The position numbers were made by a program, and so were the translations under genes. A stretch of 64,000 bases of DNA, taken from NCBI GenBank assembly GCA_963819655.1, contig CAWFXA010000003.1, forward strand, positions 256,001 to 320,000, in the 5' to 3' direction. This DNA comes from an uncultured Chloroflexia bacterium (lineage in GTDB: Bacteria; Chloroflexota; Limnocylindria; Limnocylindrales; CSP1-4). The notes below the pieces were generated by a model that was not told the DNA's origin, made no database searches, and saw only the letters and a program-made list of their open reading frames with translations. Of the stretch, positions 24,240-29,010 are shown piece by piece (within the stretch, counting starts at the first letter, position 1; every line of letters starts with the position of its first letter).

Positions 24240-25824
24240 GCTCGCCACCGAGCCGGATGATCCACAGGTCCAGGACGGCCTCCTGGTCGCGGATCGCCGA
24301 CTCGACGCGGGCGGGGACGTCGTCGTCGAGCGCGAGGATCATGAGGGCGTCCTCGCGCGGGCGCGTCCGCGCGAGATGCATCGCGCTGATGTTCACGTCG
24401 GCCTCGCCGAGCATCGCCCCGACCCGCCCGACCATCCCGGGCTTGTCGGTGTGGCGCGTGATGAGCATCACATCGGCCGGCTCCATGTCGATGCGGTAGC
24501 TCCCCAGCCGCGTGATGCGTGGCTCGCCGGCGGCCACCGTTCCACCCACCGTGATCGCGCGGCCGCCCGGTGTCGCGTCGCTCGACAACGTCAGCTGGGC
24601 GGCGTACGCGCCGGCGTCGCGGGTCTTGCGCTCGACGAGCGTGATGCCGCGCGCCTTTGCGAGCGCGCCGGCGTTGACGAGGTTGACCCGCTCGGTCGTG
24701 ACGGTCTCGAGCAACCCACGCAGTACCGCGGCGGTGAGCGGCGACCCGTCGTGCTCGGCGAGCGCGCCGGCGATCTCCAGGGTCAGGGTGCGGACACCAC
24801 CGCGTGAGAACTGCGCGAAGAAGCGGCCAAGGATCTCAGCGAGTGGGAGATACGGCGCGATCGCCTTGGCCGTCTCAGGCGTGAGCAGCGGCGCGTTGAC
24901 GGCATAACGGGCGCTGCGGCCCTCCAGGACATCCAGCACCTGCGCCGCGACCTCCTCGGCCACGAGCACCTGCGCTTCCGCGGTCGATGCGCCGAGGTGC
25001 GGGGTCAGCAGGGTGTTCGGTGCGGCCAGCAATGGGCTGTCCGTCGGCGGCTCGTGCTCGAAGACATCGAAGCCGGCCCCGGCGAGATGTCCGGATGCGA
25101 GCGCATCCGCGACGTCGGCCTCGTTGACGATCCCGCCACGCGCCACGTTGATGATGATCGAGCCCGGACGCATCTGAGCGATCTCGGCCTTGCCGATCAG
25201 GTTGCGGGTCGCCCGGGTCAGCGGGACGTGGACCGTGATCACGTCGGCGCGGGCCAGGAGCATCGCCATGTCCATCAGCTCCACGCCGTGGTTGCCCGCC
25301 TGTTCCGGGGTCACGTACGGGTCGGCACCGAGGACGACCATCTCCATGGCCCGAGCGCGGTCGGCGATCGCCTGGCCGATCTTGCCGAGCCCGATGATCC
25401 CGAGCGTGCGCCCGCGCAGCTCCAGACCGGTGAACTGCGATCGCTTCCACTCCCCGCGTCGCAGGCTCGCGTCCGCGGCGGCAGTCTTCCGTGCCACCCC
25501 GTACAGCAAGGCCAGGGTGTGCTCGGCGGCCGCGATCGTGTTGCCGGTCGGGGCGTTGACGACCGTGATGCCGGCCCGCGTGGCCGCTTCGAGGTCCACG
25601 TTGTCGACACCGACCCCGGCACGCCCGATGACGATGAGGCGGGCGCCGGCGGCGATCATGTCGGCGTCGACCTCGACTTGGCTGCGGACGATCAGCGCGT
25701 CGTACTCGGGCAGGATGGCGGCCAGCTCGTCGCGGGTACAGCCGATCCGCTCGTCGACCTCGTGGTGCGCCGCGATGAGGTCGATGCCCTCCTGCGCCAC
25801 GCTCTCCGCGACGAGGACCTTCAC
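24235..25824 (-). CDS. serA: D-3-phosphoglycerate dehydrogenase (type I, ASB and ACT domains)
   Basis: GTG 25824; 'GRAGVGVDNVD', 'GLGKIG', 'NVARGG', 'TPHLGAST', ACT 'DKPGMVG...VNISAM'. Confidence 0.96.
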   Translation of the reverse strand: MKVLVAESVAQEGIDLIAAHHEVDERIGCTRDELAAILPEYDALIVRSQVEVDADMIAAGARLIVIGRAGVGVDNVDLEAATRAGITVVNAPTGNTIAAAEHTLALLYGVARKTAAADASLRRGEWKRSQFTGLELRGRTLGIIGLGKIGQAIADRARAMEMVVLGADPYVTPEQAGNHGVELMDMAMLLARADVITVHVPLTRATRNLIGKAEIAQMRPGSIIINVARGGIVNEADVADALASGHLAGAGFDVFEHEPPTDSPLLAAPNTLLTPHLGASTAEAQVLVAEEVAAQVLDVLEGRSARYAVNAPLLTPETAKAIAPYLPLAEILGRFFAQFSRGGVRTLTLEIAGALAEHDGSPLTAAVLRGLLETVTTERVNLVNAGALAKARGITLVERKTRDAGAYAAQLTLSSDATPGGRAITVGGTVAAGEPRITRLGSYRIDMEPADVMLITRHTDKPGMVGRVGAMLGEADVNISAMHLARTRPREDALMILALDDDVPARVESAIRDQEAVLDLWIIRLGGER

Positions 25825-27011
25825 GCGCTGGTCCCGGCCACCGCCATAGGCGCGATCCCCTCGGTCGCCAGGGCCGCCCGTTGGGCCGCCGCGACCGCCG
25901 CACCTGGCTCGACCGGACGGCCGTGCTGGAGCGACACCAACTCGAGCGTGCCGAGCGCGCCCAGGATCTCCTCGAGCGTCACCGAGCCCAGGTGTCCGAC
26001 CCGGAAGATCTTGCCTGTCAGCTTGCCCTGGCCGCCGGCGAGCACCAGACCGTGCCGCTTGAGGTCGCCGTTGAACGCCTTCCAATCCAGGCCGTCGGGG
26101 ACTGTCGCCGCGGTCACCGTCCGCGAGAAGTGGCGCTCGTCGGCGAACAACTCGAATCCGAGCGCGGCCAGGCCCGCCCGGGTCGCCGCGGCGCACACCT
26201 CGTGGCGCGCGAAGATCCGCTCGGGACCTTCTTCGCCCATGAGCCGCAGGCCTTCGTCGACCTGGTAGACGACCGCGATCGCCGGCGTGAACGGCGTCTG
26301 GCCGTCGCCAGCCGCGTCCCGGTGGGCTCGCAGGTCGAAGTAGAAGCGCGGCATCCTCGCGTGCTCCATCGCCTCCCAGCCGCGCGGCGAAGCGGCGACC
26401 ATCGCGAGGCCGGGCGCGGACATCCACGCCTTCTGCGACCCGGTCACGACCACGTCGACCCCCCAGGCGTCCATCTCGAACGGCACCGCGCCGAGGCTCG
26501 ATACGGCATCGACCAGGATCAGCGCGTCGGGGACCTCCTCCCGGATCGCCGCTGCGAGCTCCGCGACCGGATTCATGACTCCCGTCGAGGTCTCGTTATG
26601 GGTCAGCAGGACCGCTTTCGTGTCGGGCATCGAGCGGAGGCGTTCGCGGATCTCATCGGCTGCCGCCGCGTAGCCCCATTCGGCATCGAGCCTGGTCACG
26701 TCCGCGCCATACACGCCCGCGATCTTGGCGAACCGGTCACCGAAGGAGCCGATGCTGACCCCGAGCACCTTGTCGCCCGGCGAGAGCGTGTTGACGATCG
26801 CCGCCTCGAGCCCGCCCGAGCCGGCGGCGGTGAGCATCGCCACGTCCGAGGTCGTACCGAAGTAGGGCTTGATGCCCTCGAGGATCCGGCCGAGCATCGC
26901 CGCGAACTCCGGACCGCGATGGTTGATCATCTGGCGCGCCCCGACGGCGCGGACGCTGGGCGGGAGGGCGGTCGGGCCGGGGATTCGGAGGTTGGGCTCG
27001 AAACGGTCCAC
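25821..27011 (-). CDS. Class V PLP aminotransferase (AGXT/serine-pyruvate type; probable phosphoserine aminotransferase)
   Basis: 'IPGPT', 'HNETSTGV', 'VDAVSS', PLP Lys 'GSQKA', 'TPFTP', 'FRVGHLG'; coupled to serA. Confidence 0.92.
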   Translation of the reverse strand: MDRFEPNLRIPGPTALPPSVRAVGARQMINHRGPEFAAMLGRILEGIKPYFGTTSDVAMLTAAGSGGLEAAIVNTLSPGDKVLGVSIGSFGDRFAKIAGVYGADVTRLDAEWGYAAAADEIRERLRSMPDTKAVLLTHNETSTGVMNPVAELAAAIREEVPDALILVDAVSSLGAVPFEMDAWGVDVVVTGSQKAWMSAPGLAMVAASPRGWEAMEHARMPRFYFDLRAHRDAAGDGQTPFTPAIAVVYQVDEGLRLMGEEGPERIFARHEVCAAATRAGLAALGFELFADERHFSRTVTAATVPDGLDWKAFNGDLKRHGLVLAGGQGKLTGKIFRVGHLGSVTLEEILGALGTLELVSLQHGRPVEPGAAVAAAQRAALATEGIAPMAVAGTSA

Positions 27012-27124
27012 GGGTGATGCTCCTGGTGACGGCGTGGCGGTCGGGTCGATGGTGCCACAGGCGGGCGCTCTGGCCGCCGCCGGCGTGCTGGACGCTCGTC
27101 GGACGCCGAGCGTATCCTCTCGCT

Positions 27125-27272
27125 GGCGCTACCTCGCGCCGCACCTCCGTCGCCGGCACCCACGCTGTCGACCTCGTGGAGGCAAAGGGGCTCCGCCTCG
27201 AGGTCGTCGGTTCGTGCCTGGCCACGGTCGGTGGCTCCGGAGCGTGGGTCCGGGCCGACGGCCGGTCAGGAG
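27125..27272 (+). ncRNA. Candidate structured 5' leader RNA (three-way junction)
   Basis: Promoter-like TGGACG-N18-TATCCT (27089-27118). Paired segments 27147-27166/27241-27261, 27169-27176/27199-27206 and 27221-27225/27231-27235; SD AGGAG at 27268-27272. Confidence 0.6.
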
Positions 27273-27281
27273 ACACACGAG

Positions 27282-28016
27282 ATGACCACCGACAAGGCCC
27301 GCAAGCGGGCCGTGCGTTCCCGGATGCAGAAGACGGGTGAGCGCTATGCCGCCGCCCGCCGCCACGTCGTCCACGATGGCGACCAGCCCGCGCTCCCGCC
27401 CCGCGTCGCCGATCCCGGCGTGTCCGAGGCGGCGATCACGAAGGGCACCGGTCAGGGCTGGGACCACTGGTTCCGGGTCCTCGACGACTGGGGTGCCACA
27501 TCGCGCAGCCACACGGAGATCGCCCGGTACGTGAACGGTGAGCATGGCGTCGATGGCTGGTGGGCCCAGTCGGTCACCGTCGGCTACGAACGTGCTCGGG
27601 GCATGCGCGCGCGAAATGAGCGACCCGAGGGCTTCGAGGTGAGCGTCTCGAAGACACTGGCGATCCCCGCCATGGACGCCTGGCGCGCGTTCGTCGAGCC
27701 GAGCCGCCGAGCTCGCTGGCTCGATCTCGCTCTGCGGATGCGGACCGGCACCCGCACGATGGGCCGCTCGGCCCGATTCGATGTTCCCGCCGAAGGCACG
27801 CGCGTGAACGTCTATCTCACCCCGAAGAGCGACGACCGAACGACCGTGACGGTCACCCACGTCAAGCTCGAGGGCGCCGACGACGTCGCCGTCCACCGGA
27901 CCGCGTGGAAGGAGCGGCTGGCCCGTCTTGCCGCCGAAACCTCGGCCGGCGCAACGGCCGGATGGGGGACCAAGGTCGCACCGCGCGGAGCAACCCGGCG
28001 CTCTCAGGCGTCTTGA
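27282..28016 (+). CDS. Hypothetical protein: basic N-terminal helix, DUF4287-like domain, SRPBCC/AHSA1-like domain
   Basis: 'MTTDKARKRAVRSRMQKTGERYAAARR', 'TGQGWDHW...GVDGWWAQSVTVGYE', 'VSKTL...AWRAF...W', 'VTVTH...WKERL'. Confidence 0.82.
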   Translation: MTTDKARKRAVRSRMQKTGERYAAARRHVVHDGDQPALPPRVADPGVSEAAITKGTGQGWDHWFRVLDDWGATSRSHTEIARYVNGEHGVDGWWAQSVTVGYERARGMRARNERPEGFEVSVSKTLAIPAMDAWRAFVEPSRRARWLDLALRMRTGTRTMGRSARFDVPAEGTRVNVYLTPKSDDRTTVTVTHVKLEGADDVAVHRTAWKERLARLAAETSAGATAGWGTKVAPRGATRRSQAS

Positions 28017-28050
28017 ACCTAGCGTCCAGCGATCCAGGAGCCAGACCCGC

Positions 28051-29010
28051 GTGACCCGATCGACACACCGCGCCCCCAGCCGTCTCCGACGTTTCGTTGT
28101 GGGCGCGGTGCTGGTCGTCGTCGTCGGGGCGACGCTGACCACCGCCGCGATCGCCACCGACACGTTCGGGGCAGGGGAGAGGTGGATCTCGCTCGTCGGC
28201 AGGGTCGAACGGTTCCTCGCGGGGCCGGTGCCGGATCGGGCGACCCTGGAGACCGTCCGCGTGACCGAGCCGCCCGAGACCGAGCCGCCGACGCCCGAAC
28301 CTACGCCCGCGCCGGCCGGTCAGGCTCCGGGCGGTTCGCCGGCCCCGACCGCCGAACCCACGCCTGAACCGACCCCGGCGCCCAAGCGCAAGCCGGTCGA
28401 CTACGACATCGTCCAGAACGCAGATAGGGTCTTCGCGTCGCAACACCACAAGGACTGGTGCGCGCCGGCCGGCGTTCAGACCGTGCTCGCCATCCTTGGC
28501 AAGCTCGACACGTCGGATCAGACCCAGATCGAGGTCGCGAGCAGGGTCCGCCACTGGGAGGCCTGGGACGACAGCCATAACGGTGACTGGGGCCCGGCCG
28601 CTATGGCCCTTGCGCTCGAGTCGTACGGCGCCCCGGGCTACGAGGTCAGGGCGTTCGAAACGATGACCTACGCGCTCCGCGACGCGGCCGTTGCGATCCA
28701 GACGACGCAGTCCCCGGTCATCCTTCTCGCGTGGCGCGGGGCACACACCTGGGTGATGTCCGGGTATCGCTCGGACGCAGATCCGGCCGTGTTCCGCAAC
28801 ACCAAGATCGAGGGCGCCTACATCCTCGACCCCTGGTACCCACGTATTTCGTCGATCTGGGGGGCGTCGAACCCGCCGGGCACGCTCACCTCGTTCGCTG
28901 AGCTGCAGGACAACTTCCTGCCGTGGAAGCGGCCCGAGGGTCAATATCCCGATCGCGACGGCCTGTGGATCACGGTCGCCCCGACCATCCCGCGCGCCGA
29001 GGCCGGCTAA
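28051..29010 (+). CDS. Membrane-anchored papain-like (C39-like) peptidase
   Basis: AGGAG SD and GTG; TM helix, Pro/Thr linker, 'SQ...WCAPA', 'HTWVMSGY', 'ILDPW' (Cys-His-Asp). Confidence 0.72.
   Translation: MTRSTHRAPSRLRRFVVGAVLVVVVGATLTTAAIATDTFGAGERWISLVGRVERFLAGPVPDRATLETVRVTEPPETEPPTPEPTPAPAGQAPGGSPAPTAEPTPEPTPAPKRKPVDYDIVQNADRVFASQHHKDWCAPAGVQTVLAILGKLDTSDQTQIEVASRVRHWEAWDDSHNGDWGPAAMALALESYGAPGYEVRAFETMTYALRDAAVAIQTTQSPVILLAWRGAHTWVMSGYRSDADPAVFRNTKIEGAYILDPWYPRISSIWGASNPPGTLTSFAELQDNFLPWKRPEGQYPDRDGLWITVAPTIPRAEAG

Follow-up and report, generated by a model that had tools for sequence, protein, structure and literature searches.

The stretch of DNA analysed here (the window, 64,000 nucleotides (nt) of contig CAWFXA010000003.1 from an uncultured Chloroflexia bacterium) holds a structured leader RNA at positions 27125-27281. 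The leader is immediately followed by a gene for a protein of 244 amino acids (aa), the first part of which is a short basic peptide. This report concerns the leader RNA, the peptide and the coupling between them. The genes and the features around the start of the 244-aa gene are as follows, in positions of the window:

25821-27011, - strand: Aminotran_5 gene, divergent from the 244-aa gene
27089-27094, + strand: -35-like TGGACG; CTGGAC is conserved only among close Limnocylindria-type relatives
27113-27118, + strand: -10-like TATCCT (of the form TANNNT), separated from TGGACG by an 18-nt spacer
27282-27380, + strand: start codon and 33 codons of the conserved peptide (profile A3)
27282-28016, + strand: gene of 244 aa, with the peptide, a linker, a DUF4287-like part (aa 51-95) and an SRPBCC/AHSA1 fold (aa ~117-223)

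The spacer between the two divergent genes measures 270 nt, and the ATG at 27282 opens a protein that starts MTTDKARKRAVRSRMQKTGERYAAARR... Three parts make up this protein: a 33-residue basic N-terminus, a sub-threshold DUF4287 match and an AHSA1/SRPBCC domain. All strings quoted in the initial annotation of this DNA were found at the locus. Its assignment of an SRPBCC-like domain stands, with AHSA1 (PF08327) at 26.2 bits against a Pfam cutoff of 22.1. The DUF4287-like domain that it also named falls below its Pfam cutoff (18.9 bits against 27), while peptide-bearing proteins of similar architecture clear it (P0005 at 27.6 bits and P0096 at 43.6 bits). The AlphaFold2 model of the protein has a mean predicted local distance difference test score (pLDDT) of 90.7, with a less confident linker, and the best Foldseek matches of the body are bacterial Aha1/AHSA1-like proteins and CalU16 (E = 2e-5 to 1e-4).

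A new family of structured leader RNA

Comparison with related loci shows that positions 27125-27281 represent a new family of structured leader RNA. As read from the aligned leaders, it folds into a double pseudoknot with a kissing loop, and two long-range pairings make it compact. Its elements, all on the + strand, are listed from 5′ to 3′:

27125-27140: P0 hairpin, GGCGC (27125-27129) with GCGCC (27136-27140), loop 27130-27135
27131-27135 with 27200-27204: PK-A, ACCUC in the P0 loop paired with GAGGU just after P3
27143: unpaired A before P2, conserved in at least 97% of 92 rows
27144-27148 with 27178-27182: P2, CCUCC/GGAGG, enclosing P1
27153-27158 with 27166-27171: P1 hairpin, whose 7-nt loop CCCACGC (27159-27165) is the 5′ strand of PK-B
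27159-27165 with 27242-27248: PK-B, a 7-base-pair (bp) loop-loop kissing helix between the P1 and P6 loops
27183-27186: junction CAAA, with A27184-27186 in at least 97% and C27183 in at least 80% of 92 rows
27187-27190 with 27196-27199: P3 hairpin, GGGG/CCUC
27205-27238: variable region P4, 28-61 nt long
27239-27241 with 27249-27251: P6 hairpin, GGA/UCC, whose 7-nt loop GCGUGGG (27242-27248) is the 3′ strand of PK-B
27252-27281: tail with the Shine-Dalgarno sequence (SD), AGGAG at 27268-27272

For the upstream comparison, 80 homologue loci were collected by a related-locus search. Their alignment diverges freely 5′ of 27122 and is strongly conserved from 27122 to the ATG, even at 55% protein identity. 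Helices were found by eye in distant leaders and then by a scan of all column pairs, which yielded seven helices. In a MAFFT alignment of 30 rows, 93.9% of the cells of these helices are paired, against 36-47% with the partners slid, and in 19 of the 32 pairs both sides change. With 94 rows aligned to model R1, pairing reaches 97.1% against 30-53% slid; both-side changes occur in 24/35 pairs and 305 cells, and none of 500 shuffles reaches any of these measures. The 94-row alignment was fitted to PK-A, P2, P1 and P3. P0, PK-B and P6, which are absent from the search model, pair in the same alignment at 96.1%, 98.4% and 93.2%. The covarying structure that the initial annotation expected upstream of homologues is thereby present. 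RNAalifold, applied to 20 close relatives, returned a mixed and partly wrong structure.

Individual helices bear this out on the 94 rows. Both-side changes affect 3/5 pairs of P0 and 4/5 of PK-A (95.9% paired), the latter with variants such as GUCCU/GGGAC, UUGUC/GACAA and GUGUC/GACAC. P2 is 98.5% paired and changes on both sides in 4/5 pairs (CCCGC/GCGGG, CCUUC/GAAGG and CCCCG/CGGGG, for example), while all six pairs of the P1 stem (97.9%) and all three of P6 do so. P3, at 97.6%, is mostly invariant in sequence. The kissing helix PK-B varies on both sides at three of its seven pairs, e.g. CUCACGC/GCGUGAG, CCCGCGC/GCGCGGG and CCCCAGC/GCUGGGG; in the window, ACCCACGCT at 27158-27166 complements AGCGTGGGT at 27241-27249. 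Pattern matching located a P1 loop in 42 leaders, and in 37 of them 22-25 nt separate it from the CAAAGGGG anchor. Region P4 folds no better than its shuffles (mean z = 0.0). The + strand is the RNA strand because G.U pairs occur, one P3 pair being G.U in 91/94 rows.

These helices revise the three-way junction drawn at first. Its 5′ hairpin GGCGC/GCGCC is P0, and the core of its long closing stem (27159-27165/27242-27248) is PK-B; the outer CCGTCG/CGACGG and CCGG/CCGG segments of that stem are not supported, and the topology is that of a double pseudoknot with a kissing loop instead. The arm CGACCTCG/CGAGGTCG finds no support in the pairing of relatives. The arm GCCAC/GTGGC is not conserved and sits in the variable, poorly aligned P4, which leaves it unproven rather than excluded. 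Taken together, the four helices without support have 53.2% of their cells paired, against 58.7% when slid by one column.

Chance pairing in a G+C-rich spacer, or a small-protein coding region in place of a functional RNA, is a reading to which hardly any probability can be given. In its favour, the energy of the single sequence is no better than that of its shuffles: a minimum free energy of -85.3 kcal/mol compares with a mean of -79.8 for the shuffles (z = -1.30), and 15/200 of them fold equally well. The folding energy of this single sequence is therefore uninformative, and the fold first drawn, when enforced, comes to -84.0 kcal/mol. Long open frames also cross the region, as in G+C-rich DNA. 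Against it stand covariation far above the slid and shuffled controls and conservation over at least four phyla, as given in database records. The insertions are also not multiples of three (25 nt in L012; 28-61 nt for P4). No conserved small open reading frame of an upstream attenuator was found in the leader; what is found there are compensatory base changes and non-triplet length changes.

The leader matches no described RNA family in Rfam, as the initial annotation had suspected. A cmscan of 26500-28500 against Rfam 15, with E up to 10, gave no match overlapping the leader and only three matches to microRNA models (26504-26569, 28104-28152 and 28204-28278), all far under their gathering scores. 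Literature searches found no account of such an RNA or of an RNA-peptide cassette of this sort, and the passages searched in two surveys, PMC11109978 and PMC8632094, likewise contain none; the supplements may list motifs. An earlier description of the leader under another name is possible.

The promoter first proposed, TGGACG-N18-TATCCT, holds in its -10 part. A TANNNT ends 5-10 nt before P0 in 77/91 distinct upstream regions, against a background of 1.2% for a window of equal size, and 3-14 nt before P0 in 78/91. Since this position is kept in 77/91 regions, TATCCT is a credible -10 element, with the RNA starting at about P0. The -35 part is conserved in close relatives only, and a generic scan for the sigma-70 consensus called no promoter at the leader. 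Because the promoter lies directly in front, the position suggests that the RNA is the 5′ end of the messenger RNA (mRNA) of the downstream gene. Metatranscriptome contigs from four RNA runs of three studies span the leader and the first codons (27131-27380) at 95% identity or more; such contigs cannot show transcript ends or levels, and the libraries may contain DNA. Two RNA-library contigs start at 27132 and one at 27131, where an assembly effect at a variable site is possible.

At the other end, the distance from PK-B to the ATG is 28-41 nt in 40/43 leaders. The mean unpaired probability of the SD is 0.296, against 0.388 with the upstream part shuffled, and is the lower of the two in 56 of 88 leaders, which are non-independent sequences.

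RNA and N-terminal peptide as one inherited unit

The peptide has the consensus MT.QKSFK.RVR.RM.KTGE.YT.AR over 33 residues. AlphaFold2 places a helix at residues 3-18, a turn at TGE and a second helix at 22-33, with pLDDT of 83-94 for the block. The model suggests a small hairpin with a hydrophobic seam, F7, V11 and M15 against Y22, A25 and L29, and a basic outer face. In the 19-row profile R12, R14, A25 and R26 are invariant and their codons vary; R12, for example, uses CGT, CGA, CGC and CGG, synonymous positions varying at the invariant residues. Because synonymous sites vary freely, the RNA structure stops before the codons and the conservation there is at the protein level. Complex prediction for two copies of the peptide gave no support and is counted neither for nor against.

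The first codons after the start show a bias of their own. Among 73 Thr codons at position 2, 66 are ACC (27285-27290 region and homologues), and an Arg at residue 3 is coded AGG in 17/21 cases, which is unusual for G+C-rich genomes. This bias at codons 2-3 may reflect an RNA-level constraint just past the start codon.

The peptide profile matches 3645 cluster representatives at E <=0.001 and 685 at E <=1e-10. Among the best 150 of the 3645, the motif begins at residue 1 in 124; in the others the start was probably called too far upstream. Neither the Pfam nor the NCBIfam scan of the peptide yielded a meaningful match, and a search with residues 1-40 returned only orthologues labelled hypothetical or YndB/AHSA1. 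The profile run against all PDB chains, with E up to 10, gave one unrelated match (2oka, E = 1.8), and the ESM Atlas held no usable neighbour. The peptide is an unannotated domain, "hypothetical" in current databases. In a RefSeq Streptomyces plasmid, a "hypothetical protein" is annotated from exactly the M1 of the peptide, with an RNA match in front.

Comparison of these loci shows that the RNA and the first 33 codons are one inherited unit, which stands before unrelated bodies with a variable linker between. Among the 80 homologue loci, 43 carry the peptide (E <1e-14) and the RNA ends at the ATG in 42 of them. The other 37 comprise 35 loci without the peptide and two with a degenerate one (L041 and L068), and none has the RNA; homologues with the same body that are without the peptide are also without the RNA. 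As would be expected of an autoregulatory leader, the RNA and the proposed binding part co-occur and are gained or lost together, and nearly every instance of the RNA extends up to the start codon.

Searches independent of the protein body agree. A DNA pattern for the RNA core matched 120 stretches, of which 80 loci were listed; 51 of these 80 are true by the model, the other 29 having no model match at E up to 0.01. Among the listed loci all 50 assessable RNAs directly precede the peptide, while L101 runs off its locus. The genome of the window itself holds exactly two RNA matches (143 and 67 bits) and two peptide matches, each pair abutting, the second cassette lying on a 451-aa BtrH_N-DUF4872 protein. 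When this genome and four further ones were searched both ways, 7/7 strong peptide matches abutted an RNA match; two weak peptide-like matches (E = 0.01-0.07) in the same genome set had no RNA. Within the family of the source organism, 6/41 genomes have RNA matches, and in the five besides its own there are 8 peptide matches, each beginning at the last three bases of one of 8 RNA matches. In the ten genomes searched both ways, 15/15 strong peptide matches abut the RNA, and the eight genomes present in both the peptide and the RNA samples have neither element. The whole-genome RNA searches score just 66-150 first-look candidates. The portable RNA-plus-peptide module proposed at the outset is strongly supported as a pattern of co-occurrence, given these 15 cases in ten genomes and the unrelated bodies.

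Two loci of the homologue set have a layout of their own. In L038 (1043-1503) the RNA is followed by a hydrophobic open reading frame of 92 codons and then by the peptide gene, which begins 9 nt past the stop of that small frame. In L041 (1364-1500) a degenerate peptide (E = 1.8e-8) without leader RNA precedes a homologous body that continues in another frame from 1501; this looks like a decaying cassette, judging from its sequence.

The breadth of the unit was sampled in two phyla. In 401 Chloroflexota genomes (the source genome and 400 drawn), 17 carry the peptide; 17 peptide loci were tested for the RNA, with G277 left out, and 16 have a match, L232 none. The RNA matches of family f37 are weak (30-49 bits), most of them ending ~33-140 nt before the ATG. 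In 401 Actinomycetota genomes (G001 and 400 drawn), 51 carry the peptide, in up to 4 copies per genome. Sixty of these loci were tested, after 8 matches from unpublished genomes, the contig-end G563 and the match of G001 itself were dropped, and 51 of them have an RNA match (E <=1.2e-4).

Eight of the remaining nine Actinomycetota loci carry a divergent RNA subtype. Its loops are CCCCAGC/GCUGGGG or CCCGGC/GCCGGG, and GAAGGGG replaces CAAAGGGG. With filters off it scores weakly in place at 7/8 loci (E = 3.5e-4 to 0.29), L299 giving nothing. An independent alignment of the subtype returns the same architecture, with 87.6% of cells paired against 36-57% slid.

The same three cassette subtypes are present in each of five Actinomycetota genomes (G513, G541, G620, G633 and G698; loci L240-L287). 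Their peptides start with MT.[QNH]KSFK, MPT[DN]KDFK and MTAHKHLK (one copy with a GTG start), and the three have RNA score classes of their own, at ~115-128, 36-42 and 54-70 bits. Matched pairs of RNA and peptide coexist stably in one cell.

In assembled genomes, the bodies behind the RNA (E <=1.3e-5) are DUF4287-SRPBCC, BtrH_N-DUF4872, DUF1835, WD40 and CN_hydrolase, and those behind the divergent subtype are BFN nuclease, DUF2087 and TPR; for several cassette bodies Pfam gave no match. Behind the RNA stand at least eight unrelated Pfam architectures, which form no coherent one-ligand pathway. Fragments of 33-60 aa and the families DnaJ, GerE, Ala_racemase, Abhydrolase and Semialdhyde_dh were not counted as bodies; these short or unusual carriers of the peptide, from the representative library, partly resemble frameshifted or chimeric calls in metagenomes. 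No phage record matched, and the PADLOC defence library gave a generic WD40 match only. Two cassette genes, L295 and L291 (G595:C138:1306 and 4527), lie 3 kb apart on one strand, both with the divergent RNA subtype; one encodes a TPR protein of 455 aa and the other a protein of 318 aa that has no Pfam match.

The diversity of the bodies bears on whether the leader could be a riboswitch for a general small molecule or ion (a second messenger, stress metabolite or metal) with a scattered regulon, the peptide being a co-travelling tag, localisation signal or tether. Such an account is unlikely, but deserves real weight. The leader has a conserved, covarying structured domain of the kind found in riboswitches generally, and hallmarks of an aptamer in its two tertiary pairings and in the unpaired A27143 and A27184-27186. 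Its distance to the start codon is fixed, its SD sits in a paired tail, and there are just 1-4 copies per genome. Known second-messenger riboswitches also control diverse genes. However, the bodies (SRPBCC, BtrH-like, WD40, TPR, nuclease, nitrilase-like, DUF1835 and DUF2087) share no pathway, a diversity that argues against a classical metabolite riboswitch. Bodies without the peptide are also without the RNA, and the shared peptide, the sole common feature of the controlled genes, would be left unexplained.

The nature of some bodies raises a second alternative. The peptide could keep hold of the leader, possibly after processing, in a stable ribonucleoprotein whose RNA inhibits, scaffolds or acts as a cofactor of the tagged proteins, like a type III toxin-antitoxin system. 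The co-occurrence data apply equally to this arrangement. Some bodies are potentially harmful (bifunctional nuclease, CN_hydrolase and papain-like BtrH_N), and genomes with 3-4 cassettes could gather several tagged proteins on like RNAs. The metatranscriptome contigs that span the leader and first codons add weakly to this side, the contigs showing neither ends nor levels. Yet the RNA is single-copy, without tandem repeats, and has no evident processing site; most bodies (SRPBCC, WD40, TPR) are not toxins, and no defence or toxin-antitoxin protein was matched beyond the generic WD40. This arrangement is accordingly improbable.

A third alternative, about equally improbable, assigns the leader to another factor acting in trans (a regulatory protein, the ribosome or a small RNA) and makes the peptide a passenger of in-frame copying. 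Gene fusions that capture regulatory regions commonly take the first codons along, and a variable linker does join the peptide to each body. A passenger would decay, however; the peptide is instead under strong purifying selection in every context and stays at residue 1.

Outside the unit, the flanking genes show synteny in close relatives only. This includes the next gene (28051-29010), which starts 35 nt past the stop and encodes a membrane-anchored protein with a weak, sub-cutoff Peptidase_C39_2 match (E = 0.0013). In the spacer, nearer the Aminotran_5 gene, CGATGGTGCCACAGG at 27047-27061 forms a conserved block amid variable surroundings. The block is kept in L003-L013, L016 and L017, with 1-2 letters differing in some, while L010 is without that stretch; it may serve the aminotransferase gene as a promoter or operator.

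A candidate feedback cassette

The most far-reaching reading is a portable feedback cassette, in which a basic helical hairpin would recognise its own kissing-loop leader and the unit of promoter, leader and peptide, grafted onto unrelated proteins across Actinomycetota, Chloroflexota and other phyla, would give translational homeostasis. It is tentative, with a probability of roughly 40%. In the explanation preferred here, which is put at slightly short of an even chance, the leader would restrain or tune translation initiation, the SD lying in the largely paired tail. Its partner would be the N-terminal peptide itself, a basic helix-turn-helix mini-domain, and the likeliest points of contact would be the kissing helix or the conserved A and CAAA junction. 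The translated protein would in turn act back on later rounds of initiation, possibly already as a nascent chain and in cis, and any protein that acquires the cassette would acquire its control. The peptide is favoured as the binder because it is the sole feature common to the controlled genes, is N-terminal and lies behind a flexible linker.

Several observations weigh against this feedback cassette. Family, PDB and Atlas searches found for the peptide no relative whose structure or function is known. The RNA and the peptide lie side by side on the DNA, so that linkage alone could account for both their co-inheritance and the matching subtypes. In L038 the RNA lies 290 nt upstream of the peptide, so strict adjacency is not required, and both L300 (a weak peptide, E = 1.3e-7) and L232 have the peptide without detectable RNA. 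The transcript start, at about 27124-27126, is inferred from the sequence. Modelling gives the SD an unpaired probability of 0.30 for the free ensemble, which falls to 0.26 once the conserved fold is imposed. The 3′ strand of P6 complements the SD with -5.13 kcal/mol, only slightly better than the -4.68 kcal/mol of permuted pairs, and 1 of 300 permutations does as well.

Two specific switching schemes gain little support. Release of the SD by the kissing hairpin is not supported by modelling, in which the enforced conserved fold does not open the SD; this also counts against the feedback cassette. A switch of the P6 3′ strand from P6 to the SD and back can be seen in many leaders and is not general.

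If the coupling does reflect binding, the cassette would be a compact natural recognition pair, an RNA of ~158 nt and a peptide of 33 residues, and a transferable gene-control module. If the reading is true, it would amount to a new principle of bacterial translational control, acting through a tag instead of the protein's own function, and would provide an orthogonal feedback part for use by synthetic biology in G+C-rich hosts. On the feedback reading the RNA family and the cassette principle are new, and an mRNA leader coupled to its product is of a known kind. Even if the peptide is not the ligand, the leader is a structured RNA that is widespread and undescribed, and its intramolecular kissing loop of 7 bp is unusual; with it travels a peptide that matches the 3645 cluster representatives mentioned above.

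Comparison with known systems

The mRNA leaders of ribosomal proteins and threonyl-tRNA synthetase are structured, often pseudoknotted, lie beside the SD, are bound by the product and control initiation. The likeness is a structured leader by the SD of an mRNA for the proposed binder. In those systems the RNA-binding surface is part of what the protein normally does, with one protein family to each leader. Here, in contrast, a detachable 33-residue mini-domain and its leader are found on unrelated proteins, and binding is proposed.

In phage lambda, a short, basic, helical, arginine-rich peptide at the N-terminus of the N protein pairs with the boxB hairpin in the nearby transcript. The shared feature is a short, basic, helical peptide at the extreme N-terminus of a protein. 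Lambda N brings about transcription antitermination through a small hairpin, whereas the RNA considered here has ~158 nt and two tertiary pairings, is the peptide's own leader, and goes with a peptide predicted to form a two-helix hairpin.

Riboswitches built on pseudoknots or loop-loop contacts resemble the leader in position and size, in covarying helices and conserved junction nucleotides, and in an SD within the 3′ tail. They differ in that the leader has no Rfam match and that the genes it would control share the peptide and no pathway. In type III toxin-antitoxin systems (ToxIN), a pseudoknotted RNA lies directly upstream of the protein that it is thought to bind. There the RNA is made of tandem repeats processed by the endoribonuclease toxin; here there is one RNA copy per locus, with diverse bodies and no defence-family match.

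Rop (Rom), in its relation to RNA I and RNA II of ColE1, shares with the cassette a 7-bp helix formed by two 7-nt loops and a helical hairpin as the (candidate) binder. PK-B provides the fully paired 7-nt loop-loop helix that a Rop-like protein would take as its target. Rop is described as also binding an unrelated TAR-aptamer loop-loop complex (PMC2602780) and as a homodimer (PMC11323272). No Rop chain appeared in the PDB profile search of the peptide with E up to 10. In contrast to the Rop system, the kissing loops here belong to a single molecule, an mRNA leader, and the peptide, which is strongly basic, has half the length of Rop. By analogy of the target helix and the helical hairpin, Rop appears to be the nearest mechanistic counterpart of the cassette, and not its relative.

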